Source: Balanoglossus misakiensis
Lineage: Eukaryota; Animalia; Hemichordata
Reading direction: 5' to 3'
Assembly: GCA_040954595.2 (NCBI GenBank)
Contig: CM082597.2
Coordinates: 9,207,778 to 9,271,777 of the forward strand
DNA: 64,000 nucleotides
Positions 18,078-53,982 of this stretch are shown here, one piece after another. The notes under the pieces were generated by a model. It did not search any database and had not been told where the DNA came from. It saw only the letters and a list, made by a program, of their open reading frames with translations. Every line of letters begins with the position of its first letter. Position 1 is the first letter of the stretch. The position numbers and the translations under genes were made by a program.

Positions 18078-19941
18078 ATGGCCGAAAGTGACATATTTCA
18101 GCCTGTCGTTAGAGGGGAAGTGCCCATTCCTAGTATTAGAGGGGAGGCGTCCATTCCTAGCATTAAAGGGGAACAGCTCACTCCTAACATTAAAGGGGAG
18201 GTGTCCACTCCTACTGGCACTGTGCCACCCCCGAGGAAGGGTTTTTCTGATACAGCCACTACTGTCAAAACTGGCAGGGGTCGGGGTTTTGTTCGATACT
18301 CCCCTGGGGGTATAGCGCGAGAGCAGCGATTGACTAGTACGTTAGATGATCTCGAGAAATCATTGCATCAGAAAGAATCAGAGATTGAAAAGTTGCAAGA
18401 GTTGATGATCAAGCGGAAAAGTTAGACGCAGACGAATCAGCTATTCGTCGATGGCTGGCTCTGTCTGATAGCGACACAGCTGGTATGGCTGTAGGTGGTC
18501 CACATACGCCAGCACCTGTGCCATCTACACCTACATTATCTGGCTTTACCGAAAAGTCAGGTGATGGCGCGAGCAGTATGACTCAGGGTGTGACGCCTAC
18601 TGTTTCTTCACCCCCTGGAGCGATGGCAGCGCAAGCGAGCGATGCAATTGTTACGACTCCCCATGGTGCCGCGCGTTTTCCACATGCTGGTGCTGTGCCA
18701 GTAGCGTTTTATCAGCCGCCCCGATTATCCACTTTTTCGGGCGATCCTGATAGAAAAATGGATGTAGATTTTGAGCTCTGGAAATATGAAGTCGACTGTT
18801 TGCGGCAAGATCCCACTCACAACATGAAAGTTTTAGTACAAACCGTTAGGAAATCGCTGCGCAGGTCTACTGGCCGACTTGTCATGAATATGGGCAGTGA
18901 TGTTACGTTGGACCAAGTTTTGGATAAACTCGAAATCAGTTTCGGGGAAGTCGAAACAGGAGCGCTGTTATTGGAGAAATTCTACAACAACAGTAAACAG
19001 AAAGAGAGCGAAACAGTTTCACAATATGGAAACAGACTTGAAGCTGAGATCCACAAAATCCGCAGAAGAGGTGGGATTGGTCCCGATGCCATAGATGAAA
19101 CTCTCAAAACTGTCTTCTGGCGAGGACTGAAGTCAGACAGAGTGTTCGATGTACTTCGTTCAGCAGTCCGAAAAGGCACCACTTTTGAGGAGCTGCTGCA
19201 GTTGGCGAGAAATGTAGAACAAGAAGGCAAAGAGCGTACTGGAGATGAGAAACCCAAACGGCAATTCATAGGAAGAACTCAACAGGTTACTTCAGCCGAC
19301 GACAGTGGTAGCTCCAGTGGGAAGAATCTAGAAAGTGAGGCCATGAAGATGATAAAGTTGACAGTTGAAGGAATCCAGGGGTTAGCTGAAACAGTGAAGT
19401 CCCAAGCAGCTAGTATGAAGAGTCTGGAAACTGAAGTGAGACGCACCGCTGAACGAGTTGAAAAACTTGAACTCCAAAGAGGTGGACTGAACCGAACCCC
19501 AGAGACAGGTCCAGCACCGACCCAGAAAGATACCAGTTCTTCCAAACCATTTCAGTGCTACAACTGTGGGAAGGAAGGACATATGGCAAAGCATTGTAAG
19601 GAACCCAGGAAAGAAGATAGTAGATCATGTTTCAAATGTGGAGAGCGAGGACACATTGCGAAACGCTGTGAGAAAGCCGATCGCCACAGTTCGTCGGGAC
19701 TACCTCGTATCAATATGTGCAAACTATACCGAGGTCAGTTAGGAAGAAAACCCATTCAAGTACAACCCCAGAGAGCTGGCTTGATTGGTGGTGCTATGGA
19801 AGGAAAAATCTTCGTCGAGGGAACAGAAACGTCCTGTCTCATAGATACTGGATCCCAGGTTTCCACTATCAGCAAGAGTTTCTACGATGAGTACCTGTCT
19901 GCCTTACCCATACAGAGTACAGAAGACACCTTGACCATTAA
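18078..19941 (+). pseudogene. gag: Gag (PNMA/Ma-like capsid, two CCHC knuckles) and N-terminal aspartic protease; disrupted near 18425-18485
   Basis: [46 protein letters not shown], protease motif LIDTGSQVS. Confidence 0.9.
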
Positions 19942-20517
19942 AGGTCTCATGTCATGCTTTGGAAAGTTTTCATTTTTCCACGTCAAAAGCTCACCTAGGG
20001 TACCTGTCTATGCATTGCCTATTGTGTCGGTTCCGAAAAATGTGCGCGAATGCCGGAATTTGCCCCCTTTTTTCATGCCTGTGATCGGGGAGCCACTTCG
20101 CACTCGAGCCAGGCGAAGGTATTTGCATATGGACAAACAAGTACACTACGTCGTAGTGTACCATTCTGTTTACAGTAAAGTGTAATTATCGGTCCATGAG
20201 TAATTAAGTCCACAGACAAAGACAAGCTATATAAACAGTGTTCAAAGCAAAGGAAGCCCTTGCCTCACATTGCAGGCAGAGGATTTACAAAGGTGTGAAA
20301 GACTATTTGTCCACATCAAGATAAGTCTTCGGCTTAACTTCGAAAAGCCGAAAAAAATCAACTGAGTTGGGTTAGGGGTACACGCCCACCCGCCACTTTT
20401 ACTTGCTTGTTATCTAAGCACAAGGGGCAAAACGCATTGCAAGATAGTAACATACGTTAACTTCAAGACCCAAATAGTGATTTTACGCGTGGTTGTATAG
20501 GGCATGGCATGAGACCT
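19942..20517. mobile_element. 576-bp non-autonomous DNA transposon (Kolobok-type) inserted in the Gypsy protease
   Basis: TTAA TSD (19938-19941, 20518-20521); TIRs AGGTCTCATGTCATGC / GCATGGCATGAGACCT. Removing it restores TLTIKGANDQPIPFIGIVE. Confidence 0.88.
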
Positions 20518-20521
20518 TTAA

Positions 20522-23500
20522 GGGAGCCAATGACCAGCCGATACCCTTCATAGGCATTGTCGAGGCAGTCATGTCCTTCCCCTTGATGATTTCGGTGATG
20601 ATCGAGAATACACGATTCCTGCATTGCTTGTACCAGACAACGAGTACAACAAAGTGGTGCCAGTGTTGATTGGGATGAACCTACTTGAATTGTACCCCAG
20701 GGCTTCAATCAAGACTCAGAGACGGAGAGGAGCCAGATTGTGTAGAATATCAGCTGTTGCCGAAGGAGTTTTCAGAAAGTTAGATGCTAGAGACCGTTTT
20801 GTTGGAAAGAAAGGTGACTTGGGACCTGTACGAGCTCTGATACGACACCCAGTGAAATTGGATCCAGGACATGGTACCACTATCTGGGGACGTGCCAGGA
20901 AAGGACTGCTGGGTGATCAGTATATTGTCTCAGTGGAGCCGACCTCTGAAAATTCAGGAGACTACACCACGAGTCCTGCAGTTTCAGTTTTGAAATGTCA
21001 ACAACACAAGTCGAAAGTGCCTGTGTGTGTGCAGAATATGTCGTCCACCCCAGTAACCATTCGACCGGGGGAGATCATAGCTAGAGTACATGTTGTCACT
21101 TGGTTTGGTAGACCAGATGAGTATGCTGCTGTTATGGAAGACGCCAGTGACACCGAAGGCAAGCCAACGTCATCAGGGAAGTCTGTACCGAGTTCGAGAA
21201 AGATAGTCCTGCAGAGTGGAATAGAATTCGACGTGTCCAATCCCCGATAGATGAGATGCAACTGAAGAAAGTGTCTGATCTTCTACAGCAGAAAGAAGAA
21301 GTCTTTTCCAAACATGAAAACGACTTAGGATATAGCTCCGTCGAGAAACACAAGATTCGCTTGTCCGATGACCAGCCGATCAGAGAGAGACATAGAAGAA
21401 TCCCACCCGCCATGTATGAGGAGGTGCGGCAGGTTTTGAGAGGAATGCAAGAAAGTGGAGTAATTCGAGAATCTCATAGTCCTTGGGCGGCGCCCATAGT
21501 ATTGGTCCGCAAGAAGGATGGTCAGACCCGACTGTGTATCGATTATCGTAAGCTGAATTCTCGTACAATTCGTGACTCGTACGCACTGCCAAGAATCGAT
21601 GAGAGCCTAGAAGCCATTGGAGGAGCAAGGTGGTTTTCCTCTTTGGACCTAAAGTCGGGATACTGGCAGATCGGAATGTCCGAAGAAGATATCGAGAAGA
21701 CAGCTTTTTTGACACCAATGGGATTTTGGGAGTGCACCACCATGCCCATGGGTTTGACAGGGAGCCCTGCCACATTTCAGAGATGCATGGATAAATGTCT
21801 AGGAGATCTTCACTTGAACGTTTGCCTCGTATACCTCGACGATATCATCATTTTCTCCAAAACGTTTGATGAGCATCTGGAGCGTTTGTCACTAGTTCTT
21901 GACCGACTCAGAGAGAAAGGCTTAAAACTCAAACCGAGTAAATGCCAGCTGCTTAGATCCAGAGTCAAATACTTGGGCCACATCATATCCGAGAATGGCA
22001 TTGAGACTGATCCTGACAAAGTTCGCGCCCTGAAAGAATGGAAGGTACCCACCTCTGCTAGAGAAGTCAAAAGATTCCTAGGCTTTGCTGGATACTATCG
22101 ACGCTTCGTCGAAGGCTACTCCAACATTGTGAAGCCCTTGAACGAGTTGACAGCCGGATTACCTACCAAGAGAAAAGCCAATGGTAGAAGCCGTGAAAGA
22201 CCATGTAGATTGCCACCGTTTGAATGGAGACCAGAGCATCAGAAGGCGTTTGACACAGTCATAGAGAAACTTACCAGCCCACCCATATTGGCGTATGCTG
22301 ATTACAGTAAGCTGTTCGAACTCCATACCGACGCAAGCCACACTGGATTGGGGGCTGTGTTGTACCAGGGAGATGGAGAGCAGAAGAGAGTCATCATGTA
22401 TGCTAGTAGAAGTCTGTCTCACAGCGAAAGGAATTACCCGGCACACAAACTGGAATTTCTCGCACTCAAGTGGGCGGTGACCGAAAAGTTCCATGATTAC
22501 TTGTATGGAAACAAATTTCTGGTAGTAACAGACAACAACCCACTGACTTATGTCAACACTACCGCGAAGTTAGACGCAACGGGTCATAGATGGCTAGCCG
22601 CTCTATCAACCTATGACTTTCAGCTGATGTATAGACCAGGAAAGCAGAACAGCGACACTGATGGACTATCACGCCAAGTTCCTAAAGTTCCACAGCGCCA
22701 GAGATTTGAGAGAAGAGAAGAAGTAGATACGAAGATGTCAGAGCCAGAAGATGAAGCAGTCCTCCTGTCGGAAGAAGTAGTTCGAGTGATGTGTCAGACC
22801 CCTCAGGTATCCAACCATGCTTGGGTGGAGGCGATAACCTGTACAGAGGACTCAGTTCCCAAGAGTCTGGATGAACCCCTGTCTGTTCCCGGTGTAGTGT
22901 CGTTACCGGCTATCAGTGGAAGAAACTACAAGAGGAAGATCAGATGATAGGAAGACTGCGTTGGTATTTGAGCAGAGGACACTCTCCAACAAAGGAAGAG
23001 AAGGAGAAGGAGACGAGTTCCCTTGTTGCTGCATCGAGAGAATGGAACCGAAACTGCTTTCGAGAGGGAGTATTGTACCGAAAGAGACAGAGTCCCGAAG
23101 GAAAGCCGCAATATCAGCTAGTCTTACCAGCTCATTATCGTGGTACCGCACTAGAGGGAATTCACGATGATGTAGGCCATCTAGGACAGGAACGAACACT
23201 GGAATTGTTACGAGCCCGATTCTATTGAGCATTCATGAGTAGAGATGTAGATCAGAAGATCAAGACATGTGAACGATGTACTAGAAGAAAACTACAGAGC
23301 AATCAGCAGGCCACAGCTCAGATGGTTAGTATCCAGACTACTCAGCCCCTGTAACTAGTCTGTATGGACTACCTTACTGTTGAGGACTGAAAGGGAGGAG
23401 TAGGGAATATTTTGGTCATGACGGATCATTTTACCCGTTATGCCTTGGCGATCCCGACAGCGAATCAGAAGGCCAAGCCTACAGCCGATCATCTGTACAG

Positions 23501-25087
23501 ACACTTCCTAGTTCATTATGGTTTTCCCAACAAACTGCACTCGGACCAGGGAAGAGATTTTGAATCTCAGGTGATACGTCAGCTCTGCGAGATCACTGGG
23601 ATAGAGAAGACCCGCACTACTCCGTACCATTCCCAGGGCAACGGACATTGTGAAAGGTTCAATAGGACGTTACTTGATATGTTGGGGACGCTGTCGCAAG
23701 ATAAGAAGTCAAACTGGAAGAAGTACGTTGAGCCGCTCGTCCACGCGTACAACTGTACACAGAACGATGCCACTGGTTTCTCGCCGTACTACCTTATGTA
23801 TGGAAGACATCCAAGACTTCCTATCGACATATACATGGGTTTACAGTCAGAGACGGAGGGAAGTGGATATGGTAGTTATGTCAGTGAGATGAGAGATCGA
23901 CTAGCCGACGCCTACAAGCTGGCTGCAAGCAAGTCCAGAGCGAGTTCTGCCCAGAACAAGAAGAGATATGACAAGAAGACCCAGGAGGCTATGTTGGAGC
24001 CAGGAGACATAGTTCTTGTGAAGAATGTTAGCATCAGAGGGAAACACAAAATCGCCGACAGATGGGAACGCCAGTGTTACCGAGTGATCCGAAGAATCAG
24101 CCCTACACCGTGAAATCTGAAGGACCTGATGGAAAAGAGAGAACTTTGCATAGGAACCTGCTTTTACCATGTAGTACTGTGCCTATACAGTATCCAGAGA
24201 GACCCATGAAAGCATGCAAAGAAGAAAAGATCAAAGGAGAGATGGATGGACCCAGAACTCGTAGTCGAGCGAAGATAGAGAAACAGAAAGATCAGTATGA
24301 CGATGACTCAGATGAAGAGACTGATGGAGTATGGAAGATACAAGTTCCCTAGGAGATTGGTGGAGTCAAACAGTTTGGTACACCTTTCAGTCAAACTGAT
24401 ACGCTGGTGGATAGTCCTAGAAAGAGCTTTGCAACTTCTCCATTGCTGAAGGTGGACACTCCTCAGAAATCTCCAAATGGTAGAAGAGTGTATTTTGAGA
24501 GTCCAGAGATGCAGTTGTCACCGACTGAGGATGAGACGAGTATTGTGTACGAGACTGAAAATGAAATTTCTGGTGGACCACAGACATCTCCAGGTGTCTT
24601 GTCTCCAGATGCACCAGTGTTTGTCCCGACAGAGCAGTCATTACCAGAAGAATTGGAGCAGGAAGAGTTGTCTGATGATTCAGCAGTATCAGATGCCGTT
24701 GATGATCCTGATAGACATCCTTCTATCCAGATCGATAGAACGCTACCCAGAAGGTCCCATCGAGTTCGAAGACCGCCTGAGAAGCTGAACCTTTCTCATA
24801 TATGTACAGGAAGAGATGGTAGAACAGATGTCGATGAAGAATCGCTGAGAGAACTCTTGTCGAGAGTTATGGTCCTCTTGAGGAGGGAACGAGTGACGAG
24901 CAGCGGTCTAGAGAAAACAGATGCTACAGAATCTGGAATAGATGCAGATTTCAGTAGATGTGCCGGTTCCGAAGATTTGCTACCAGATGCAGACCAGGAA
25001 CAAGCTGAGAGGATTGATGCTTTGATCCAGGCGAAGAATGACGTGCACTCGAAGCTATCCAGTGGTACGTGCCCATGGTTGACGTGA
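20522..25087 (+). pseudogene. pol: Pol: protease C-terminus, dUTPase-like domain, RT, RNase H, integrase and long C-terminal tail; several stops and frameshifts
   Basis: RLCIDYRKLN, LDLKSGYWQ, YLDD, TDASHTGLGAVL, HDDVGHLG...C..C, HSDQGRDFES, GHCERFNRTL, RRSHRVRRPP. Stops at ~21250, ~23228, ~23354, ~24352. Confidence 0.93.
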
Positions 25088-36112: not shown

Positions 36113-39100
36113 CTTGTATGGTGGCGCTGTTGATCGGCAGCCTCTCTCTTTCACTCTCTCAGATTTTATCGATTTTACCGTTTTAACCTGTGTATTTCCC
36201 GTCGATTTTACACATCCTGCTTTTTAAACATTTGCTGCCTTGGATTCTTCACAAAATTTGGAACTTTACCATGTCTGGAAGCAGTATTTACTCAATTATC
36301 AATGCCTGGCAGTCCCTGGGTGTAAGTAGAAGTTCTTTCAATATGGCGACGACGTCCCTTCGTTCAACTATGAATACCAAGCTTTTTCGACCACGCGGGC
36401 GTAAAGCGGGTTTCAAGCATCCAAAGCCAAGGTATGGAATTCAGACGATCATAAGTAATCACCGTAGGCCTACTGGACATATTCGACATAATAATTCACG
36501 CACAAGAGTACTTCGTCTGATTCCGGTCTCTTCACAAGGTAATTTATTCAACGAACCGGCTGCCATTGAAACTGTAATCACCACTCGCTCTACACAGACA
36601 CCTGGACACAAGCGAACTTCTACACTTGTCAATATTCCAAGAATTTCTTCCTGCTTCAACAAACTCAATCTTAATGCTGCTCTGTGGAATGCCCGTTCCC
36701 TGAATGGTAAAATTGGTGCTATAGCATCTACTTTGCTCGAAGGGAAATTGGACATAATGATCATAACTGAGACCTGGCTGAAGAGTCAGTTTGATCCTGT
36801 CATTGCTGAACTCCATTCTACAATCAGTGGGTACAATTTTTACCATCAGTCCCGCTCTCAGCGACGAGGGGGAGGGGTAGCTGTTTTGGCTCGTTCTAAC
36901 CTAAGACTTGTGGAAAAAGGATCAACGCCGTTCCAGTCCTTCGAATCGTTACACGTAACATTTAAATCCTCAAGTCAGACTCTCCGCATAATCGCCGTCT
37001 ACCGTCCACCAAAATCGACAAAAAATAAGGCGACCACAAACGATTTCATCTCTGATTTTTCCACTCTTATGGAAACAGCCGTACCTTCCTCGGGCCATCT
37101 CTTAGTTGCTGGAGATTTTAATTTTCCAGTCGAGAACATGAGTTCTCCGGACACAAGTAAGTTGGTCGACCTTCTTCAATCCTTTGGCCTACAACAGCAC
37201 GTTAAGATACCAACACACAGCAAAGGCCACACATTGGATCTACTTATAACACGTTCATCAGAGCACCTGCTTCACTCAATCAGATCCGACGACTCGCTAA
37301 ACTCTGATCATAGTATTTTATATTTTGGACTTAATGTTCAGCGATCGCCCAACACCAAGGTAACAATTACACAACGTGACTTTCGTACAATGAACACTGA
37401 TAAGCTGGTCGATATACTCTCATCCGAAATGCCCAATCTTCCCAGCATTACCAACCCAGACGATTTGTACCATTATTTCCATGGAGTTGTTACCGACGCC
37501 CTTGATGAGGTCGCCCCCGTCAAAAGCAAATCAGTCCTAAATAAAGTGCGTGCACCATGGTTCTCTGAGGATTTACTAACTATGAGAAAAGAGTTACGTC
37601 GACTGGAAATAAATTGGCGTAAATCAAATTTGGAAATCGATCGCCAAATGTTCATTTTTAAGCGCATGGAATATTCACGCCGATGTGACGCATTAAAAAC
37701 AGACTATCACCGGATTAGAATTGAAGACGCAGATAACAAGAAATTGTTTGCGATTGTTGCAGAACTGTCCGATTCGAGAAAAGCATTATCCAACTCCATT
37801 CCGAACAACGTACCAACAAAAGAAATTCCATCAGCCTTCATGAATTATTTTGAAAACAAGGTGTCGCAACTCCGTGACAGGATTGGTCCACAACCGCACA
37901 GCTGTGAGGCTGACATAACACCGACTCATACTTTCGCGGAATTTGACCCAGTGTCACCTGGGGATATAATTGCGTTAGTGAAACAATCACCACCGAAATC
38001 TTGTGAACTCGACATTCTACCATATGGAGTGTTGAAGAATTGCGTACACATCTTAGCACCTTTCCTTGCTGATCTTTTCAACAATTCGCTCACAGCTGGC
38101 ATCGTGCCGAGTCATTTCAAGTCAGCGATAATTCGTCCATTGTTAAAGAAAGTTGATCTGGATCAGAACATTCTGAAGAACTACAGACCGGTTTCAAACC
38201 TTCCGTTCTTGTCAAAACTCCTCGAGCGTGTAGTCGTTCAGCAACTGAACAGTCACCTCACTAAATTTAGTCTTTTCACAAAGTTTCAAAGTGCTTACCG
38301 TGCTAATCATAGCACGGAAACTGCTCTCTTGCGTGTCCACAATGACATCATGCTTGCCTTGAATAACAAACAGGATGTAATTCTTATCATGTTAGATTTA
38401 TCAGCGGCGTTTGACACTATCGATCATGAAATAATGCTACAGAGACTACATCATCGTTTTGGAATAACTGGTAACACTTTATCGTGGTTTCGTTCGTACC
38501 TCGTTAATCGCCAACAGTGCGTCAAGGTTGGATCTGCATCATCCCCAAGTTCTCGCATGAAATATGGCGTTCCACAAGGATCTGTTCTAGGACCTCTCAT
38601 GTTTACACTCTACACTGCACCTCTGGAAGACATCTTCGGAAAACACGGGATTGATTGCATGATATACGCGGACGATACGCAAATTTATGCCATCTGCAAC
38701 AGCCCTAACGATGTTCGCAATAACATTGAGCTCTGCGTCGATGATATCCGCAGCTGGATGAAATCTAACATGCTTGTACTGAATGATGATAAAACTGAAG
38801 TTATTCACTTTTCATCACGTTTAAAATCTAATGTGACAACATTAGACTGTCTAAGAATCGGACAATGTGACATAATTCCTTCAGTTTCAGTTAAAAATCT
38901 CGGCGTTATTTTAAGTCAGGATGGTAGCATGTCTGATCATATTAGTAAGCTGTGCAAAAATGGTTTCTTCTCTTTGCATAGAATAGCTAAAATTCGTAAT
39001 CTTCTTGACAGATCTACAACTGAGAAACTAGTTCATGCATTTGTAACGTCTCATTTAGATTACTGTAATAGTCTTTTGTTTGGTATCCCGAAGGGACATC

Positions 39101-39619
39101 TAGCTCGACTTCAGTCTCTACAGAATGCTGCGGCGAGGCTAGTTACTCGTACGCGCAAGTCCGATCATATCACACCCATACTCAAAGATTTACACTGGCT
39201 ACCGGTAGAGGCCCGCATCAGTTTTAAAATTCTCTTGCTCACATTCAAATGTATCAGTGGTAAGGCACCCGCCTATTTGACTGATCTTTTACATTTATAT
39301 GTACCAGCTCGAGAACTGCGCTCTAGTGTTCAATTCTTTTTAACTCATCCTCATGGTAAATTTAACAAAACCTACGGACAGAGAGCTTTTTCAGTTTGTG
39401 CGCCCATTTTATGGAACAATTTACCCCTTGATATCAAAACCGCCAGAAGTGTCAATATTTTTAAGCGTAATTTGAAAACATACCTTTTTACTCGGTTTTA
39501 TGTGTAACGTGTTCGATTGTGTCCTTTTAACTATTTTTACCAGCCTTGTATTTTTTAATCTACTCTTTTAGCTATGTACAATGCGCTGAGACGTATGTGT
39601 AGCGCATTTTAAACAATTC

Positions 39620-41384: not shown

Positions 41385-41720
41385 TCACTCGTCCAATTCC
41401 ATAACTGTTGACGCTCTCTCCTTCATCCATATTTCTCCATCTTTAGTTCTGCTAAAGATAATTTTGCCGTCCTTCTTTTCGACCACGTAACTGCAGTTGT
41501 CCGAGTCATCCGTGTGACTGGCCGCAACCTCATCGACCCACTGCTCAGAGCCATCTTGCCTTTTCACACAGATCGTATATTTGCCCGGAGGGGTCGCGAT
41601 GTTGACATAGTTACCGCTGGCAATCACGTGACTCTTGACATCTTGATTGGCGTCTGTCAGTGTGACCTGAATGGGCTCGCCAGTTCCGTTTGCGATGCTA
41701 GTAGTGTGCTGGTTACCCAT
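41385..41720 (-). CDS. Small 111-aa beta-rich protein with N-myristoylation motif, unknown function
   Basis: Clean ATG-TGA ORF starting MGNQHT (MGxxxT) with alternating beta-strand pattern; splice acceptor ttcctacag ~35 nt upstream suggests a spliced 5' UTR. Confidence 0.65.
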   Translation of the reverse strand: MGNQHTTSIANGTGEPIQVTLTDANQDVKSHVIASGNYVNIATPPGKYTICVKRQDGSEQWVDEVAASHTDDSDNCSYVVEKKDGKIIFSRTKDGEIWMKERASTVMELDE

Positions 41721-42708: not shown

Positions 42709-44247
42709 ATGGCGTTCACATACTTACACTTTAATATTTTTTCGGTATGTCGGCTAACGTACATAACAGTCCACAGTCAAGAAGAAAAGAAACCCAAAGT
42801 ATCCACATTGACAGGCATTCGGAAAAAGCGCCCGAAACCACACTTATATTCTTACGAATCTGTCACACATTTAGGAGAACATATGGCTCGAAAGAGTTCA
42901 AGTATTTTCGTGACTTTGTTCGACAGACAAGTATGTGAAGGCGGATTCACTTTAGACCATTGGTCTTTCACGAAACCTCCTCAAGAACAAATTGTGGAAG
43001 TCACGAAAGTTGATCATACTTTAGGGTTTTGTGGAACCAATGGATCTTCCGTGCGTCCGATCATTGAATTAGTATATGTTGGTACGGATATTTTGCCCAG
43101 GAAATTTTCTAAACGAGCCACCGAAGACCCCGTCCATCTTTCTGTGAAATCAGTACACGCTATAAAGGCGTGGCTTGGGAAACATTTACCAGAAAAGTCA
43201 TCTCCTTGTTATCGTTGGACAGCTTGTAATGTAGCTATCCCGACGATAGCGATGACGTTGCTAGCTTCGGAAAGATCAAATTTACGGTGGACCAAAAGCA
43301 CCTTTGAAGATTACATGGACTTATGCTGGTTTCTCGCGCAACAGGTGTATGGATCTCAACCAAAGACAGTGCTGCATTTACTCAATATAATTGGCGTTAT
43401 ATCACACATATCTCCACTGCAGCCCGAAAGTCTTCTATTAGATCATGTAAAACCAGATGGGTCTTATTCTGGTTCAATATTGGAGACATCTTTATTTGCC
43501 GTCGAGTTACTCTTGGCTGCGTTTAAGATGAGATATAGAGCGAAACAGTTTAATGGCGTTTATGACATATTTCACCCCGCTTTAATCGAAATACAATATG
43601 CTGACGACATTGAGTATATTTACCCGTGCCTGATCGCAAAAAGTACTTTAAAATTAATTGAGTTTGGAAACCAGACAATTTATGTCGACTTTGGACAAGA
43701 TTTGTTCATAAAGAGTCTATTACATGAGTTTTGTTACCATTCAAATGTGGATACATTTCCGACCTCTCCCTTGGGATATACATTTCTGCCCTTACAAATG
43801 TGGTTTTCTCAACTAAGAGTAAAAACTCTGTATTATATGCGTAATGATTGCTCCAAACCGTCAGCGGTTGTTTTGCGTGGAACAACTATAGTTGAAACGC
43901 TGCGCGTTCGGTATGGCGTTCGAGTAATGCCGACAGACCAGTTTTACGCGGATAGCTTTGGACAACTAGTGAAACGCCTGTCGCTACCTGAGGTGCCGTT
44001 GATTACGGAAGTACATGTAGATCATTGCGAAGATAACAGCCTCCCAGCGACAGAGACACATCCGTGTTGCTTGCATAGGCTGTATGGTAACGCGCGAATG
44101 TTTCAGAACCATAAACTAGATCATTTTCTGCGGGACGAGAAGTTAGACGCGCGTACACATATGCTTAATCTAGTCACGTCTCATACAAAAATGTCACATG
44201 TCATTAAGTTTTTCGTGACGTTCCTACGGGAACGGGATACAAAATAA
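42709..44247 (+). CDS. Orphan 512-aa protein, putative viral gene
   Basis: Uninterrupted ORF, ATG in AAAATGG context, basic NLS-like KKPK..RKKRPKP, AATAAA overlapping the stop (44243-44248); no TE motif recognised. Confidence 0.75.
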   Translation: MAFTYLHFNIFSVCRLTYITVHSQEEKKPKVSTLTGIRKKRPKPHLYSYESVTHLGEHMARKSSSIFVTLFDRQVCEGGFTLDHWSFTKPPQEQIVEVTKVDHTLGFCGTNGSSVRPIIELVYVGTDILPRKFSKRATEDPVHLSVKSVHAIKAWLGKHLPEKSSPCYRWTACNVAIPTIAMTLLASERSNLRWTKSTFEDYMDLCWFLAQQVYGSQPKTVLHLLNIIGVISHISPLQPESLLLDHVKPDGSYSGSILETSLFAVELLLAAFKMRYRAKQFNGVYDIFHPALIEIQYADDIEYIYPCLIAKSTLKLIEFGNQTIYVDFGQDLFIKSLLHEFCYHSNVDTFPTSPLGYTFLPLQMWFSQLRVKTLYYMRNDCSKPSAVVLRGTTIVETLRVRYGVRVMPTDQFYADSFGQLVKRLSLPEVPLITEVHVDHCEDNSLPATETHPCCLHRLYGNARMFQNHKLDHFLRDEKLDARTHMLNLVTSHTKMSHVIKFFVTFLRERDTK

Positions 44248-44260
44248 ACTTCTGTATAAA
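44243..44260 (+). promoter_or_regulatory. PolyA signal of the upstream gene and TATA box of the next gene within a 50-bp spacer
   Basis: AATAAA 44243-44248; TATAAA 44255-44260, ~40 nt before ATG 44298. Confidence 0.6.
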
Positions 44261-44297
44261 TTTAAACGTGTAGTCAGAAATTACATAGTACAAGAAA

Positions 44298-47175
44298 ATG
44301 GCAGGGTTAGACCATCTATACCAATTTGCCGTCCTGCTTCCGTTTCACGACTCGATCTGTAAGTATACGGGTGAACCGAAATCGCCAAAAGACTTTCATT
44401 CCGTGTACTTCTGTACAGGTGACCAATCATCGTCTACTCATTGCGAGGTTTACGCAGTTCCACCGGGTGAAAACGTTCCCTGGAAAATGTGTGATATTCC
44501 AACCAGCACCAATCTCGTAGAAAAATGCAACAGAGGCAAAAATATCATGATATCAAAATCTGCGTTTAGAAATGCCCAATGGAAACGCGGTGCGTTCCGA
44601 AAGAAGTCCCGGAAAACACCGCAAAATTTAGGCTCCGCCCAAGCTATAATGGCTATCGCAAACTTGTATTATACTCGTGCGATCTGTACTGAAGATATAC
44701 ACGTACAAGTTTTTATACAGGAGAAATATGACATATTCAACGAGGGTGGATTCCGGATAGAACTATTGCATGATTTTTCGCACGATATTGACCGAGAAAT
44801 TGGTGAATGCCTGGTACAGACTCATACAAACTTATCGATCTTTGGTAAGAACAGATTACACATTCGGTTTTGTTTAGGGGTTAGGGTTAGGTGTTAAGAT
44901 ATCTATTTTTAGAGTGATGAATCCAACTATATTATTACGGAACGCTACATGGATTAAACTTAAACTCTGACTTGTTGATGTTTTCTGGTTTATGCACGTA
45001 ATAGGATATCCCAAGGTCCTACACTACAAAGATCCCGTCCCAGCCAAGGTTAATAAAGAGTCGGTGATGACAGCTTTGAATACTCCGGACAACTGGAGCG
45101 TTTTAATTGAATTTAACCCCGTATTGCGAGACGTACAAGCGTATAGTTTACAAGATCTAAACGTGTGTGCCGAGTGGGGTCACAGAGGTACTTCGAACAT
45201 TCTGTTAATTTTTGCGATGGACAGAGATCGAGAAAATATGTTTGTGTTGTTATGGGCGTTACCGGCAAGTGACATTCGCAAGGCGTATATGCCAAATTCC
45301 GCCGACACAGAGGTTGTGATTTCTAATGATGTATTACAGAATGCCACGTTCGTATTTCACGTGTTGCATGCAGCGTCACCTTTACATAGACGCTGTTCAT
45401 ACGCCAGTAAGTTTCGACTGAAGAGAGATGCTATCAGTTCCAAACGAGCTATTGCCATGTACCCAACTTACAACGAAACACATGCCCACGTGTTGGTAGA
45501 GTGGAAACAAGATCGTTGTCAGTATATGCGAAATGGTGCACGTATTTTATTCGCGTACAATATTAACAGTAATTCGAACGCCATCATTTATGTTAAAGCC
45601 ACGCCCAGTTTTTTACCGCGTAAAATAGCAACGTGTGAAATTCCCAATGATATATTACGCTCTGTATCAAATGAGACAATCATTCCGCCAGGAATCTTTG
45701 CGGAGGCGCATTTTTTAGAAACTGCGTGGGACTGGAACGACGAAATACCGACGGTCCAATTAAATCCATTTCAGATTATATACGCAGTGAAGGCTTTGTT
45801 TTCGGTGGGATTTGGTCAAGACAAGGATTGGAATCATCGTTTTGCCGCAAGCAACGCGATTTGTTGGCCGTCTGATGACGTCATTACCACAACAGAACAA
45901 TCATTCCTAAATAGGTGCTTTAAATCGCCCACATTTTCAACATGGACAGACGTAGAAAACGACATATTGTGTCAGGGCGACCGATCATATTCAAACCTAT
46001 ACTGTCACGCTGACAAATGCACATATTGGTTAGCTCATCAGAGAACTTTCGTGGTTGTCGAGTCCAAACCATCGATTGAGTCTTATTTGACAACCCCTAC
46101 TCGAGTTTTATACGTCGCAAACAAGTGGCATCCCGGAGCGGGGATAGCAGTATATTCGTGGAAAACTCGGGATATTCCGCGCCCACTTGCTATTATCGAT
46201 AGATCTTCAGAATCGTTTGACAATATTTGGTCGATTTTGGGTAATTTTTCACGCGAGTGTATTGCTTTGCGCAACATACCAATGAATGCCAACAGAATGC
46301 AGACAGACTTACACTTTGAGGGTCTACACGCGCAATCCGTCAAGCATTTCGTGGAAAACCCCGATTCGAAAATTTTCTTTGACGCTGGTTTCTTGTCATC
46401 GGATTCCAAGTGGTTCCCGGAAGCGTTCGCTATCTGGGAATATCCTCAGATCGAGGGACATGCGTGGGGGTTTGTCAACATGCTACAACGAGCCGTTTCT
46501 GTGTACGCCATGTATCAGAAGTATGCATGTGGTTTTACCATAGAACAACCGGTGGCAAAACTAATGCAAGAAAAGATAGAAATTGCATCATGTGATCCAA
46601 ATGCGGCATGTCTACAAAAGATAAACACTATGGTCCGTAATGAATTCGAGAGAGCAGAATTGGTCTTCTGGTCGGCGTTGGTTGAGTTCAGACAAGATGT
46701 TAAACATTACGTTACGGGATTACCGGTGGAAGTTAAATTCAGTTCAGGTGACATAGAAAAATCGAACAAACTATGTTGTTTCACTTTGGTTGGTACACAC
46801 ATACGACCCTTTTTGATTGCGCACCTGGACAAAGACGAAAGTTTGGTTGAAATGGTAGTTGATCTAAAGGTGCTTAACTGTAATTATTTCAACCATGCAA
46901 TGAGTTCTAACCAATTCTACGTTAACTTCGCGTATGGTATAGACACTTTCTCGTCCAGATGCCAACAAATGAACCAGTTTGAAATACTGGCTTGTTTATG
47001 GGCGATGGTAGAACAACGGGGTCACACCATGAACGAAACATTGGTTAATCTGTTGAAGCGTCACATGGTAAAATACTTTGAACAAGACCTGACGTGCCCT
47101 GCCACTACACTTTCAGGCTTGCAGGTATGGGCGAAAGAGTGGCTGGATTCTCTCATAATTGACACATCCCTGTAA
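44298..47175 (+). CDS. Orphan two-exon gene, predicted 905 aa (exons 44298-44844 and 45005-47175), putative viral gene
   Basis: Donor G|GTAAGA at 44845, CTGAC branch-like site at ~44967, acceptor ATAG| at 45004. The phase-1 join rebuilds GGA and fuses the 199-aa and 727-aa ORFs in frame (NLSIFG-YPKVL). Confidence 0.75.
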
Positions 47176-49432
47176 TTGGCTACTGCCGCCAAACAAGACC
47201 ACCGCCCGGGGATATATCCGTTGGGGATACACTCGGCGGCCGTTGAGGGCGTATGTATTCCTGTCGGACACAATTCCAATGGACTAACATAGTTATATGT
47301 CTGTTAGTACACGTCAGCTGGCATAGCCGGAAAACACGACCAGGCTACCTGCAGAAAGAGTGGCTGGATTCTCGCATAATTGACACATCCCTGTAATTGG
47401 CTACTGCCGCCAAACAAGACCACCGCCCGGGGATATATCCGTTGGGGATACACTCGGCGGCCGTTGAGGGCGTATTATTCCTGTCGGACACAATTCCAAT
47501 GGACTAACATAGTTATGTAATAGAGAACCACCGACCCCCGAGGTGGTTCTTGGTTTCGATTCGCCGAGGGCCGCAGGCCCGAGACGATTGGAAACCAAGA
47601 ACCACTGAGGGGGAGGTGGTTCTCTAACTTAAACCACGATCCCCCACAGACATTGTCACCATTGGAGCTTCGTGTACCACAAAGACGTCGTTTTACTCAA
47701 CGATTCAATAAAATGAACGAACAAAAGCTTATCAAAAGAGGCTTATTCTTCATTGCTGACTGTGAAATTTGGTTGGCCACCCCTTTTCCTATAAATGAAT
47801 CATGTCGTGGGCAGGTAGTTCTAGACCGCCCTGCTGGGCCTTACAAGATCGCCCACGCTTGACAGGTGTTACTCTAAATGTTCATACTTACGTGTCGGAG
47901 TGATATGCTCATTTCAAGCACTAATTTGCATCAAATTAAACTTTACAGGTGTGTTACGTAGTGTATTATGGGAAGGGTTACAGCTATTGGGGTTTTGCGT
48001 GCACATGGTAAGCTTACGCGAAAATTTTCTAGGCCAAATGCAGTAGGCCTACATGTAAGTGTCACGTTTTTTTTATTTTCCTTCAAATGTCCATGAAATC
48101 GATCTGAAGATACATGTAGTTCCGATCTATATCATCTGCGAAAACAAGCGGCTACATGTTGGTAAAGCAAAAACCGGGTCACAATGCTCTACATGGTACT
48201 ACTGCCCGTCTGTGTATTGGCCTCCCTGGCTTTTGAACGAACCACTCTCTACGAGCCACAGCGGCAACGCGTCTGTATGGTAGCGATATTGGTGAGTAAC
48301 TCATCTGCGAAAAGACTTGATACCGAAGTGAATCCGTCCGACATTACAAACCCACGTCTGGTGAACAGCAACAAAAAGTAAGCACAACTTTGCAAGGTAC
48401 GCGGGTTTTGTTAAACAGTAGGCCTAAAACAGCCATCCTTGTTACATGTCGGTAGTGAAGCAAAATCGAAGTGAAGCATCTGGTTAGAGTAATACAAGCA
48501 AATCTGGGGATAATGTGATTTAGTATAATTTTCTAGAAATTTGTAGTGAATTTATTGCAACGTTAGTTTGTTTCTGGTGAATTGATTTTTGTCTATTTTA
48601 TACTTTTATTATCATGTTATGAAGACTCTCGAGAGCCACCAAGACATTAGCTTTGTACGTCAGTAGACAAAACTGTGAATGTGAAGCATTGAATGAAATG
48701 ATCCGGAGACTGTCGCATATCCAGTTCGCTTTCAATTAACATAAAAATTACTCTATTCAAATGAAATGTACTTTGAATACAGGTATAGAAGTAAATGTAA
48801 TTATGCAAATAAAGCATTGTGTATTTGTATTTTTGTTACGACAGGTGAGACTGAGTCCTGCGGTAGTTCTAGAACCCCCGGAGGTAGTTCTAGAACTACC
48901 CGGGACTTGGTTTTAAACCTGTGGTTTTGTGTGAGACGGAGGTTCTCTCAGTGAATGACTTGTCTATTGAATAGTGTGACGTCACGATCGTGGTTTAAAT
49001 GTCTGTTAGTACACGTCAGCTGGCATAGCCGGAAAACACTACCAGGCTAACCGCAGAAAGAGTGGCTGGATTCTCGCATAATTGACACATCCCTGTAATT
49101 GGCTACTGCCGCCAAACAAGACCACCGCCCGGGGATATATCCGTTGGGGATACACTCGGCGGCCGTTGAGGGCGTATGTATTCCTGTCGGACACAATTCC
49201 AATGGACTAACATAGTTATATGTCTGTTAGTACACGTCAGCTGGCATAGCCGGAAAACACTACCAGGCTAACCGCAGAAAGAGTGGCTGGATTCTCGCAT
49301 AATTGACACATCCCTGTAATTGGCTACTGCCGCCAAACAAGACCACCGCCCGGGGATATATACGTTGGGGATACACTCGGCGGCCGTTGATGGCGTATGT
49401 ATTCCTGTCGGACACAATTCCAATGGACTAAA
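47133..49432 (+). repeat. 221-bp tandem repeat, ~3.7 copies, second copy split by an insertion
   Basis: gaaagagtggctggattctc starts at 47133, 47354, 49056 and 49277 (period 221). Confidence 0.93.
47517..48998. mobile_element. 1.48-kb non-autonomous hairpin-ended element (Helentron/Crypton-like structure)
   Basis: Inserted in agttat|atgtctg of the repeat with no clear TSD. Left ~105-bp hairpin agagaaccacc...ggtggttctct, then ttaaaccacgatc inverted-matching gatcgtggtttaa at the right end. Confidence 0.75.
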
Positions 49433-49451
49433 CATAGACAGTTACTAAACT

Positions 49452-49463: not shown

Positions 49464-49670
49464 TGTGTGCTTACCGAATAAAATATCTCTTAACATTCAA
49501 AATGTGTGTATGGTTATTTCGATCGAAGCAATTACAATTGATAAAAAACAGACCTCTGTGTCCTGATTAGCGCACTTTCACCTTGGGATGGTCAATGCAA
49601 GGTTTAAAAAGTCACAGCCAAATGGCGTTACAACTTGATATGTCCTTGAGCTCCTTTCGTTATATGTCTG

Positions 49671-51659
49671 TTAGTATAAGTCAGCTGGTATATCCGGAAA
49701 ACACGACCAGGCTAACCACAAAATGAATGCCATGGCCAAATCGTCCCGTTTATTTAAAGCCTTTCCATTAAAGGACATTTTCCCGTCCACTTTAATACTC
49801 CGTTTAAAATCGCGCAACTGCGACAGAAGAATTTCCATCATCGCATTTTGATCGTCTTGTGTCGGGGGCCTTGACATTCCTGAGGAATTCGTGAGACACT
49901 TGCGTACACTAATTAAATCATTTGCGAATGATACTAACCCGTTTGTTACCATTAACTGAGCTAGGTGAACTAGATTTGCTTTATTGCGCGTCCAAATGCC
50001 AGTTTTCATCTTTCCGTCCCTTCCGGTTTCTGTTTCGAAGTGTGTCAATATACCTCGTTGGTCGAAATAATCCCCTACCTCCCGAGACATTGCAGCAGAA
50101 TGGGCGTGTGACGTGTTTCGTTCTATATAGATTCGAACAGGATACTCCGATAACTTTGGGTATTGCTTGAATGCATATTCCACGGACTGGATGCACAAAA
50201 TGGTATGCTTGTGTAATAGATTTTCAATGTCACGCTGCGATTTAGCTGCCACGTGATCTAGAGCAACGATCTACAAGCGAAACAGACAAGGAAAAGTGGT
50301 TAAATCATGTAACACCTCTATACGAAACAATTAAGTTATTTTTGTATAAGAGTGAGCCTCATATGTCAAACAAAACATTTAGTGTAGGATGTTATTACTC
50401 AAAACGTTCCATCTCCAACAGCACGATGTCGACCATTTAAAAAGCAGGCGAAACGCCTTCTTCGATTGGAAATACAGTATGGATAGACAGTTTTTCTCAG
50501 AATTTATTAATGGGATCATTCAAAGAGAAGGTCATCTGTCCAGCAGTTTACTTATACGGTTTCTTGGTCGAGAGCATGGATGTCTCTACAAGGGCGTTCA
50601 CGTCCACACGATAGTTGACTTCAAGATGGAAAAAACCATCGCCTGTGAGACGTGGCGTATTTTGTCGTGTCTGGAAGATTCTGTGTCTGCCGAACAAGAT
50701 GGGTGTTTGTGCGCGTTCGAAGCAGTTTTACACAGGGCAATTGAAATGTTTTCTATAACGGTCAATGACCAGACAAACGCGTTATACAGGCGTGAAACCG
50801 CCAGGGAACTTCAGTGGATAATTGATCACATTGAAAAGACGATCATACATTTGCTTTCTCTGCATCAATTGTCAACGGACGAATCACCGCTATTAACAGC
50901 GGCATTACACATAGCTGGTATTGTAACGTGTGCAATCAGACCTCCTACCGCCATTCAATTAGAGATCCCACGTGACCGTCTCGTGATACCCAAAGTAGTG
51001 TGTAATTTGTTCAACTTAAGATCAACTGAGACACAGATTCCTTTACTCTGAGAAACAAGCATGGTATATATTGGAACAAATTAACGCAATCTACTTACAA
51101 TACGTTCATTTTACCACATTTAATTCCGGCAACTAGTCCTATGCCTGACACATTTGATGGTGTGGGATCGATTACTAGTCTGAGTCCAGATGTTAAGAGG
51201 TGCTCGCTGACGTCAACTCGTTTTTCGACCAATTTATCTAGCGTTATGTCGGCAAACAGTTTCTCGCTAGATGTATCAATAAAATCTGCCACACCGAGGC
51301 ACTCGCGTTCATAGGTTCCTTTTGCCAAGATGTCCATTAATATTCTGACTGGATTTCCTTCGCTAGAATCAATGTGCCTTGGAACCAGGTGGAGTTTATG
51401 GATACATACACCATGTACACCTTTCGATACACATTCTGAACACATGTACGTTTGAACGATCGACTTGACAAGGGGTTCCCCCCCCCCATGATATGTCCAA
51501 CAATTTATAGGACCAGTGTTCTCTGTTTGCCATAGATGAAGTAAATAAAACCGACACTGTTTTAGGCTGAAAAATGGGCGCAGAAGTGACCAATGAATTA
51601 CGTTTTACCCACGGAAACTCGTCCACCCAACCAAAACTACAACCGGCTCCTCTGGCAGC
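49671..51659 (-). CDS. Herpesvirus-type DNA-packaging terminase large subunit (UL15/UL89-like), last two exons 51659-~51104 and 50270-49671; one frameshift in a homopolymer; Walker A exon not found
   Basis: AARGAGCSFGWVDE (Walker B; cf. herpes GIRGQDFNLLFVDE), VLFTSS (cf. IIFVSS), TYMCSEC...CIH, LVIDPTPSNVSGIGLV (cf. YVDPAFT..SGTG), IVALDH, IYIERN (cf. VEGN), FNGK...RDDLAMA (cf. SGK..SDDL.VA). Acceptors tttcag|GCT and cttgtag|ATC. Confidence 0.88.
50389..51051 (+). CDS. 220-aa orphan protein nested antisense in the terminase intron
   Basis: Intact ATG-TGA ORF filling most of the 50271-~51103 intron; TATAAG at 50345-50350. Confidence 0.75.
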   Translation: MLLLKTFHLQQHDVDHLKSRRNAFFDWKYSMDRQFFSEFINGIIQREGHLSSSLLIRFLGREHGCLYKGVHVHTIVDFKMEKTIACETWRILSCLEDSVSAEQDGCLCAFEAVLHRAIEMFSITVNDQTNALYRRETARELQWIIDHIEKTIIHLLSLHQLSTDESPLLTAALHIAGIVTCAIRPPTAIQLEIPRDRLVIPKVVCNLFNLRSTETQIPLL

Positions 51660-51685
51660 CTGAAATATATAATTATGAATATATA

Positions 51686-53960
51686 CAGTGAAACCTGACC
51701 TTACGGACACCTGACAAAACCGGACACCTCCGATTTACGGACACTTTGTTAATTCCCAAATTTGTCTCATTGTAACCAATGGGTCTGCGTCCTGATCAAT
51801 CCGGACATCTCTAAAATGCGGACAACGGACAGCTGTTCGATACAAAATGCGTAGTTTCTATTGAAATCAACCCAACAATTACGGACAGCTGCGTGATTGT
51901 CAGACATGACACTTCGACTTATCACTCACTTCACACATCAGTGGATCAAAGTTTTCAGCTTATCACAACAACTTAGACGTGTTGACTAACCTCAAATAAA
52001 AAACACATTAGACGATCAACACGTTCCTTTTGTTAAAGCTACTGAAAGAGGCGGCGATTTGTGATAAACAAATTTCCCAGAGCCGCCTATTTTACAGCAT
52101 GACAGAATGGTTTCCGCCATTATCTTTATGGTAAAGACCAGGCTTTGGATTTGCTGCAGTTCCGTAGCCAACATCTTTCCTCGGCGGAGTTTGGTGTGGG
52201 GTTGGAAGCTTCAATGAAATTGACTATTATTCACTCAACCGCTCGGCGCTTGTTTACCTGGTGTCGCGACGTCGTGCGAGGCTGAGCTTGAGTGATTTGC
52301 GCGTCATTCTGTCCTGACCTGTTTTTAGGTTGATGTTGTTCGGTGCATTTATTTCTTACTTTTTGTAGAGTTCATGCAGATGTAAGGCATCAGAATTGAC
52401 AAAATCAGTAGCTTTCATCAGGTGGACGTTGATTTCCCCGCAGCGCAGGTCAGAACTAAAATCGGCCATCATTATCATAATTTATGCAACCTTAAATGCA
52501 GGGAGTTTGTTTCTTCTGCGTTATGGTCGAGCCATTCTGAGCGGGATGAAGCCAACAAAGTGAAAGGATACAATTCTTTTTATTTTCTCATGTCAATCAC
52601 AATAAAATGAAATAACCAATTTGTCTGTGCATGCCGACAAAATTACCAGCAGTAATTTCATTGGTTGTATGATTTCAGAATCTGTCAATCGTGCTGCTAA
52701 GTTATTCACGCACCCATCGACTTCTGGTGAACAAAACATGTCGGTTTTTCTTTTGATATGGGAGAAATAAGCTATAAAAGGAGGGAAAATTTACGTTGGC
52801 AACATAACATCTTCTGACCACAGAGCGAACAACATGTCTTCTGTCAAACGCACGCGCATCGAACTTACTATCGATCGTAAAGTTGAAGTTATTCGGGCTG
52901 CAGATTCCAGAAAGTTGAGCTGTCGGCAACTTGCAGTTGAGTTTAGCATCGGCAAAACTCAAGCCAGCACTATTCTGCAGAATAGAGACTCTATTTTGCG
53001 AGAGTACGAGTCCAATTGTGAAGGCAGTCGAAAGAGAATCTGTGTTCGCACTGAGTACGAAGAATTGAATGCACTGGTATGGGAATGGTTCCAGAAGAAG
53101 TGAAGTCAGTCAATTCCGCTGTCCGGGCCGATGATCCAAGAACGGGCGCGTCTCTATGCAGAGCAGCTCAACAAACCCGAGTTTAAGGCGTCGAACGGAT
53201 GGCTCGAGAGCTTCAGCAAACGAAACAATCTTACGTTTCACAAAGTTAGCGGGGAAAGTGCCGATGTTCCCCAAGAGACTGTCGATTCGTGGGCGGCACG
53301 ACTACCTCATCTGATCGAAGGTTATTCTCCACGCGATATCTTCAACATGGACGAGACCGGCGTTTTTTACCGCGCACTCCCTGATAAGACGTTTTCAGCC
53401 AAGGGTGAAGACTGCATGGGCGGGAAGAAGTCGAAGGATCGAATCACCGCTGTCCTCTGCACGAACATGGACGGGAGCGAAAAACTCAAGCCCATCGTTA
53501 TCGGAAAGGCAGCTAAACCAAGGTGCTTCAGCAATGTCAATCTCAACGCACTTCCAGTTCTATGGCGAAACAACAAGAAGGCGTGGATGACAACGGAACT
53601 TTTCATAGACTGGCTTCGAGATGTCGACAAGAAGATGCGGCAACAGAAACGGAAAATTCTGATGTTCGTCGACAACGCCCCAACCCATCCTCAGCGTGCT
53701 GTCTGTCTTACCAACACGAAGTTGATTTTTTTCCCTCCGAATACGACGTCGAAACTGCAGCCACTCGACCAGGGGATTATCGCGGCCATGAAGAAAACAT
53801 ACCGCAAGCGACTTCTCCGCGCCGTTTTGTCGAAAGCCGACGATGACACCTTAGTTAGAATGAAATCGCAAGAACTGTCAACGTTCTCGATGCCTGCCAC
53901 TGGATCGCTCGGTCGTGGAGTGATGTCACCAGCGAGACCATTTCGTACGGTGGACGATAC
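51686..53960 (+). mobile_element. pogo/Tigger DNA transposon, right end missing
   Basis: TA followed by TIR CAGTGAAACCTGACC..CGGACAC with repeated cggacac motifs; inserted 26 bp from the terminase splice acceptor; transposase downstream. Confidence 0.88.
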
Positions 53961-53982
53961 CGACACTCCTCTGCTATGCTAA
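52834..53982 (+). pseudogene. Tigger/CENP-B-like transposase (HTH psq, CENP-B HTH, DDE_1)
   Basis: LTIDRKVEVI..LAVEFSIGKTQASTI, FKASNGWL, FNMDETG, NKKAWMT, VDNAPTH, QPLDQGII; in-frame TGA at 53101-53103 and a frameshift near 53850. Confidence 0.92.

Follow-up and report, generated by a model that had tools for sequence, protein, structure and literature searches.

Within the 64,000-nt stretch of Balanoglossus misakiensis DNA that was analyzed (here called the window), an intact gene of 220 codons was found on the antisense strand of predicted intron 2 of a three-exon terminase gene. We consider it highly probable that this is a conserved viral gene, that the divergent herpes-like virus carrying it is likely integrated and decaying, and that its helical product is a likely non-enzymatic, late-acting binding partner. 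Genes lying antisense within the terminase introns of herpesviruses are already established biology; the novelty here concerns the lineage, the protein family, and the link to UL92.

An intact open reading frame in predicted terminase intron 2

The nested open reading frame (ORF) extends from 50389 to 51051 (+), runs from ATG to TGA with zero internal stops, and, at 663 nt, takes up 80% of the 828-nt predicted intron 2 (50271..51098, -). This intron is bounded by a GTAAGT donor (51098-51093, -) and by a pyrimidine tract with an AG acceptor ending at 50271; all introns here are predictions based on splice signals and boundary conservation rather than on RNA. With 12 to 19 stops in each of the three terminase-strand frames of the 828-nt interval, read-through is impossible. 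In 1000 dinucleotide-shuffled versions of the interval, a 220-aa ORF never arose (longest-ORF mean, 85 aa; maximum, 197 aa). The initial annotation, which had described an opposite-strand ORF of this size filling ~80% of a terminase intron, was thus borne out. The nested ORF is intact, whereas the enclosing terminase gene is broken in the window copy.

The last terminase exon (49671..50270, -) is open and encodes the nuclease domain with ERNT and RDDL motifs. The middle exon (51099..51659, -) encodes the Walker B motif VDE, a Cys/His cluster, and the DPT nuclease motif; its reading frame has breaks near 51480 and 51110. What is left of intron 1 is a remnant (51660..51685, -) with an AG acceptor at 51661-51660, cut by a transposon. 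Exon 1 is absent from both the window and L001, a related locus described below. A herpes-type terminase ATPase/nuclease subunit was recognized from exon 3 of L001, which scored above the Pfam DNA_pack_C cut-off (E = 3.9e-6; the window last exon gave E = 0.07), and from exon 2, which aligned end to end with ranid herpesvirus exon 2; against terminase clusters, the L001 middle exon scored 0.96-0.97. A spliced terminase with opposite-strand genes inside its introns, a feature of the Herpesvirales, is predicted for this lineage as well.

A TATAAG hexamer (50345..50350, +) lies 44 nt 5' of the ATG, a spacing that matches that of a TATAAA at -43 of ORF 44298. In a 30-nt interval, the exact hexamer is expected by chance in 0.6% and a TATA-like sequence in 3-5% of cases. 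The TATAAG had been reported in the initial annotation; it is present and plausible as the promoter of the nested gene, but the L001 orthologue has no TATA match within 150 nt upstream. The nearest candidate poly(A) signal 3' of the gene is an AATAAA at 51278..51283 (+), antisense in exon 2, and a second AATAAA follows at 51544 (+). In the arrangement that we propose, the terminase pre-mRNA would be spliced around the nested gene, and transcription of the latter would start at a promoter of its own close to the acceptor and proceed antisense into exon 2 up to the downstream AATAAA.

Relatives of the nested gene and purifying selection

A HMMER scan of 1.84 billion representatives returned five relatives of the nested protein at E ≤ 1e-3 (43, 32, 31, 23, and 28% identity), all of them from metagenome or run assemblies. 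The start is conserved across the family, and eight residues are invariant (D32, G60, E62, E119, I123, Y133, W143, and L155). The genomic layout was checked for one of the five relatives (P0002, on locus L001), where the order was the same as in the window: a last exon with 58% identity is followed by the nested ORF with 34% and by a middle exon that is unbroken over 189 codons and 69% identical to that of the window over the compared piece. Intron 2 of L001 is 676 nt long, has an acceptor in phase 0, and shares with the window a GTAAGT donor directly after ATT. Its nested ORF fills 93% of it, leaving 39 nt between the ATG and the acceptor and 1 nt between the stop and the donor. The nested ORF is a conserved gene and, judged by the searches below, its product represents a new protein family.

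A Herpes_UL92 gene (L001:8828-9709, +; E = 2.5e-8, above the Pfam cut-off) lies inside terminase intron 1 of L001, where it adjoins exon 2 in antisense orientation, on the same strand as the nested gene. It has no counterpart in the window, because the window copy is cut there. Beyond the terminase block, no genes common to L001 and the window were found. L001 also carries two adjacent ORFs of ~600 aa (L001:441-4198, +), which look paralogous by eye and are without family.

Other searches added no further relatives. Word-indexed protein searches gave 0 of 117 candidates for the nested ORF and 0 of 242 for the last exon against longer proteins, and the same type of search with the family alignment (A3) recovered, among 2713 candidates, three already known members only. 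Scans of viral contigs with the nested ORF, the exons, and P0002 found zero relatives, and prokaryote-genome and phage collections held nothing relevant to the nested gene. Searches of the nested protein against Pfam, NCBIfam, PHROGs, and PDB sequences were blank or at chance level.

Between the window and L001, nucleotide differences in the nested ORF amounted to 0.55, 0.41, and 0.77 at the first, second, and third codon positions, respectively, and 50 of the 72 residues identical between the two ORFs use differing codons. The exons showed the same purifying codon-position pattern, and we read the long-range conservation of the nested gene as purifying. At short range, the nested ORF differed from a sister contig by three silent and five replacement changes, with zero stops or indels (pN/pS = 0.46, P = 0.24). 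The corresponding silent and replacement counts were 5 and 5 for the last exon (pN/pS = 0.28, P = 0.046) and 0 and 3 as well as 0 and 1 for the two pieces of exon 2; the pooled comparison gave 8 silent and 14 replacement changes (pN/pS = 0.50, P = 0.09), and this short-range test as a whole is underpowered. Purifying selection, for which the initial annotation had proposed a dN/dS comparison among genomic copies, is therefore supported by the long-range codon pattern against L001, but the short-range dN/dS is too weak to add to it.

The viral segment is likely integrated in an animal genome

The terminase exons belong to a gene-dense viral segment of ~41.4 to 51.7 kb with ORFs of 111, 512, 199, and 727 aa in addition to the two exons. 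The 512- and 199-aa ORFs (42709..44897, +) and the 727-aa ORF (44992..47175, +), which is convergent with the terminase, have no family. Major capsid protein, triplex, protease, and DNA polymerase were unrecognized both in this 10-kb segment and in L001. The window is animal-type DNA in which LINE, gypsy, and pogo/Tigger elements flank the viral segment. A pogo/Tigger-like DNA transposon (51686..53982, +; right end approximate), with TA then CAGTG and matches to HTH_Tnp_Tc5 and DDE_1, is inserted at a TA in terminase intron 1. A second terminal repeat of this element was not found within the window, and viral sequence does not restart past it.

In run X1, a sister contig spans 49600-51685 with 29 differing letters and continues without the transposon; its length departs from that of the window at one non-coding site and at each of the two exon 2 breaks. 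The virus-Tigger junction is bridged by one contig from run X2, which extends 42 letters to one side and 75 to the other. The X1 contig had a depth of 166 and the virus-transposon junction contig one of 26, although depth does not equal copy number and all three runs come from a single sample, possibly the window's own source. These data suggest several sister copies or a free form. Since LINE, gypsy, and Tigger elements flank the segment and the X2 contig bridges the junction, the virus is likely integrated in the animal genome, where it is likely decaying.

Several other elements were noted in and around the segment. A 221-nt tandem repeat (47133-47516, 48995-49437, and 49659-49729) derives from the 3' ends of the 727-aa ORF and the terminase; its array is interrupted by ~1.5 kb of high-depth repeat DNA, most of which one sister contig skips. 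The 111-aa ORF (41385-41720, -) has an internal Met-Gly start and weak Pfam matches of beta-sandwich type; it is covered by a contig of viral-gene-like depth and is possibly part of the element. A MITE-like inverted-repeat element with 25-nt arms and very high summed depth (42250-42493) lies just before the first of the large viral ORFs. The intervals 18485-25087 and 36271-39507 hold a gypsy-type retrotransposon broken up over several frames and a LINE with an intact ORF2 of 1078 aa. Within 36001-58500, CpG observed/expected ratios were 0.86-1.32 at 36-54 kb and 0.28-0.51 beyond 54 kb.

The predicted terminase introns are placed as in alloherpesviruses

Six alloherpesvirus loci were obtained from motif scans, five among the 12 loci of one scan and one new locus among at least 120 (22 of 64 parts). 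The other seven of the 12 were of an unspliced phage type rather than alloherpesvirus type, and two loci from the first motif scan were phage-type and unrelated. In the window, in L001, and at all six alloherpesvirus loci, RG follows two codons after the exon 2 acceptor, and exon 2 starts with AARG in the window and in IcHV-1 and with ASRG in L001. Exon 3 starts in phase 0 with IVALDH (window), ILALDH (L001), VVALEE (IcHV-1), IVGLDE (RaHV-2), or VVCLDE (RaHV-1), and the distance from there to the catalytic Glu is 49 residues in the window, L001, and RaHV-2, 48 in RaHV-1, and 46 in IcHV-1. Two of the six loci end before exon 3, and for RaHV-3 no exon 3 acceptor candidate was found by the script. 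Both predicted terminase introns are in phase 0 and fall at the same codons as in IcHV-1, the ranid herpesviruses, and Teratorn; three-exon-type introns at the positions of the Alloherpesviridae are thus predicted here, with both boundaries matching IcHV-1, RaHV-1, and RaHV-2. Published accounts give alloherpesvirus terminases as three exons (PMC3230846, PMC13030845, PMC12567609, PMC11768396), which in IcHV-1 are ORFs 62, 69, and 71 (PMC3230846).

All four loci that span intron 2 carry an antisense ORF there, of 227, 244, 264, and 319 aa. In IcHV-1 (locus L051), the 227-aa antisense ORF70 fills 94% of a 729-nt phase-0 intron 2, so that ORF70 does lie between the last two exons, as the initial annotation had stated; IcHV-1 further shares with the window the GTAAGT donor at the end of exon 2. 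The ranid intron-2 genes (RaHV-1 ORF43, RaHV-2 ORF69, and RaHV-3 A0A1X9T5F6; 244-319 aa) occupy the same slot on the same strand. An antisense slot in terminase intron 2 and a size of 220-320 aa, both features of the ORF70 family, are found in the window too. By its predicted exon boundaries, intron phases, and strand, the nested gene is shown to be the positional equivalent of ORF70 that had been proposed for it. The architecture had also been put forward as support for a herpesviral origin, and it does provide such support, but the stronger evidence is the shared intron positions and not the nested ORF.

Teratorn of medaka is likewise endogenous and multi-copy. Its exon boundaries, read by hand, are the same (ASRG...VDE and IMALEE), and an antisense gene, of 262-293 aa, adjoins the last exon at each of the eight annotated places (PMC5601938). 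Teratorn is fused with a piggyBac transposase, whereas in the window the terminase is interrupted by a Tigger-like element that the sister contig lacks; the nested proteins of Teratorn were set beside the window protein by eye only. In alloherpesviruses, the intron 1 gene beside exon 2 is of the ORF68 family, which gave no profile match to the UL92-like protein of L001 (0.2%). A likeness in Cys/His spacing between the two, seen by eye, was unsupported by hhalign or Pfam.

The nested protein compared with ORF70 and other proteins

In BLASTP, the nested protein matched ORF70 with E = 2, and hhalign comparisons with ORF70, with its three ranid equivalents, and with all four together gave ~0.2% probability. 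The hhalign score was at the level of block shuffles (13.65 versus 13.1 ± 2.0; n = 40), as were the profile scores of the ranid intron-2 genes against the nested family. Profile alignment with the ORF70 family yielded a z of 0.0, with 25 of 60 shuffles as high; the positive controls reached 5.4 (terminase exon 3) and 7.0 (ORF70 versus ranid) and the negative control -1.65. A ranid profile found ORF70 at 6e-11, and L001 was the sole match of the nested-family profile among 135 loci. The invariant N-terminal Cys/His and CCxxG residues of the ORF70 family are absent from the nested family. With no detectable similarity to ORF70, the nested protein is, on sequence grounds, not filed in the ORF70 family.

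While a single-sequence model was unusable (pLDDT 42), a six-sequence model consisted of helices only (pLDDT 81, pTM 0.72). A Foldseek search of this model against BFVD returned nothing at E ≤ 0.001. The best 50 of 421 rows (E ≤ 10) included three ranid herpesvirus proteins at ranks 12, 23, and 32 (E = 2.3-3.2; TM = 0.17-0.25). Two of them are verified intron-2 genes, from RaHV-3 (rank 23) and RaHV-2 (ORF69, rank 32), with E = 2.9-3.2 and TM = 0.21-0.25; the remaining one is a 257-aa RaHV-4 protein. IcHV-1 ORF70 and RaHV-1 ORF43 were absent from the best 50 of the 421 rows. The profile and structure checks suggested in the initial annotation thus did not show homology with ORF70. PDB structure searches gave nothing significant, the best VIA Z being 5.6 for a match that covers a helical hairpin only, and atlas matches to eukaryotic helical repeats were all ≤ 0.86, in the chance range. 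No fold listed for PDB or BFVD spans the whole model, which shows neither a new fold nor an exclusion.

We see an even chance that the nested gene and ORF70 go back to one ancestral gene, the former being a true orthologue that came down together with intron 2 and has since changed beyond what sequence comparison can recognize. Such an origin agrees with the shared intron, strand, and head-to-head placement, with the similar size (220 versus 227-319 aa), and with the two verified ranid genes among the best 50 of 421 Foldseek rows. It has to contend with the weakness of those rows and the absence from them of ORF70 and RaHV-1 ORF43, with hhalign and profile results at shuffle level where the controls performed well, and with the lack of the Cys/His and CCxxG residues. 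The same null results, obtained with working positive controls, are what would be expected if the passenger had been replaced, i.e., if the intron was inherited and an unrelated helical gene now sits in the ORF70 slot; we rate this possibility a little below even. The adjoining terminase exons are still alignable at 23-26% identity with ranid exons, and the two families conserve residues of different kinds, both in favor of replacement, which nevertheless requires a loss and a gain in an intron that hardly exceeds the gene in length and leaves the ranid Foldseek rows unexplained. Moreover, since both profiles are shallow (Neff 2-3) and members of the ORF70 family themselves share just 17-24% identity with IcHV-1 ORF70, a deeper split could escape detection.

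Two further origins appear far less probable. A displaced known herpesvirus component, such as the small terminase subunit, UL16/UL17, or UL79, is improbable: orthoherpesvirus terminase introns carry UL16/UL17, UL91/UL92 lie inside the terminase intron of beta- and gammaherpesviruses, and the nested protein is helical and similar in size to UL79, but it gave no Pfam match and no hit at E ≤ 0.001 among viral or PDB folds, the match with the best VIA Z being confined to a hairpin; none of the matches listed was to the UL16, UL17, UL33, or UL79 families. That the frame arose by chance, or is a transposon piece or a host gene, might be suspected in a transposon-rich window with a decaying viral copy; the shuffles, the full-length relatives, the conserved layout, and the third-position-biased divergence make it very improbable indeed, and no transposon or host match, which the initial annotation had named as counterevidence, was found in Pfam or the atlas. 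A conserved viral gene in the ORF70 slot is the reading that we retain.

Possible function of the nested protein

Across the family, the highest 19-residue hydropathy is 1.2-1.9, without a strongly hydrophobic segment, and the N terminus is basic. Inspection of the family alignment revealed no catalytic motif. The nested protein is likely a soluble, non-enzymatic binding protein, as far as the model and alignment indicate. We place a role as late-gene transcription cofactor beside the UL92-like protein first, because the UL92-like gene of L001 sits across exon 2 on the same strand; with this neighborhood as its sole ground, the role is a tentative one. UL92 acts as a late transcription factor. 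Against the cofactor role, intron-trapped genes stay side by side even if they do not cooperate. A packaging or capsid accessory role is only slightly less probable, and some other function is about as conceivable as the cofactor. The nested product is a likely helper in late infection, perhaps together with the UL92-like protein. Once trapped, the nested gene may protect intron 2 from loss, which would explain an intron shrunk to little more than the gene (80% filled in the window, 93% in L001, and 94% in IcHV-1).

Discussion

At the locus described here, a divergent herpes lineage has a terminase laid out as in alloherpesviruses, and a new protein family occupies the ORF70 slot. Membership in the Alloherpesviridae is not claimed, because exon identity to the ranid viruses is just 23-26%. 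That family is further marked by twelve core genes (Allo37, 54, 56, 60, 64, and others) and by fish or amphibian hosts; in the fragments covered, the ORFs beside the terminase fit no family, and the transposons in the flanks are of animal type. Orthoherpesvirus terminases are not known to have more than a single intron, at a site which we take to be just before the RG...VDE Walker B segment, like intron 1 of the window; with only one intron, they have no known counterpart of intron 2 or of the nested gene. In beta- and gammaherpesviruses, a UL92-family gene adjoins the terminase on the opposite strand, as in L001. UL91 and UL92 follow UL89 in a betaherpesvirus gene table (PMC5385831). The Malacoherpesviridae and an amphioxus-associated herpesvirus are invertebrate herpesviruses, one of them probably integrated, and mollusc and amphioxus herpesvirus terminases are without introns (PMC2994540). 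The window and L001 do not share this intronless terminase, a feature of the Malacoherpesviridae, since introns are predicted in both. In the literature covered, with most subscription journals outside its scope, we found such a layout described only for fish and amphibian viruses, and no report linking UL92, malacoherpesvirus, and terminase.

One interpretation, which we put forward with considerable reserve, is that the window and L001 represent a fourth, deep-branching lineage of herpesviruses, whose hosts would probably be invertebrates and which has kept an ancestral locus with both introns, the intron-2 gene, and UL92 in intron 1. If so, the nested-gene architecture and the UL92 system would have existed before the herpesvirus families diverged. 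Intron 2 would then have disappeared in orthoherpesviruses and both introns in malacoherpesviruses, and the gene in the ORF70 slot would be a late-transcription cofactor of ancient origin. Within the Herpesvirales, convincing sequence conservation is limited to the terminase, and the order in which the three families branched is described as unclear (PMC13030845). The position of an intron is a rare character and, unlike sequence, does not become saturated. A lineage that is ~25% identical to alloherpesviruses, shares both introns, and has UL92 in intron 1 offers a handle on the ancestral locus, and a single ancient function for the uncharacterized ORF70 slot becomes testable.
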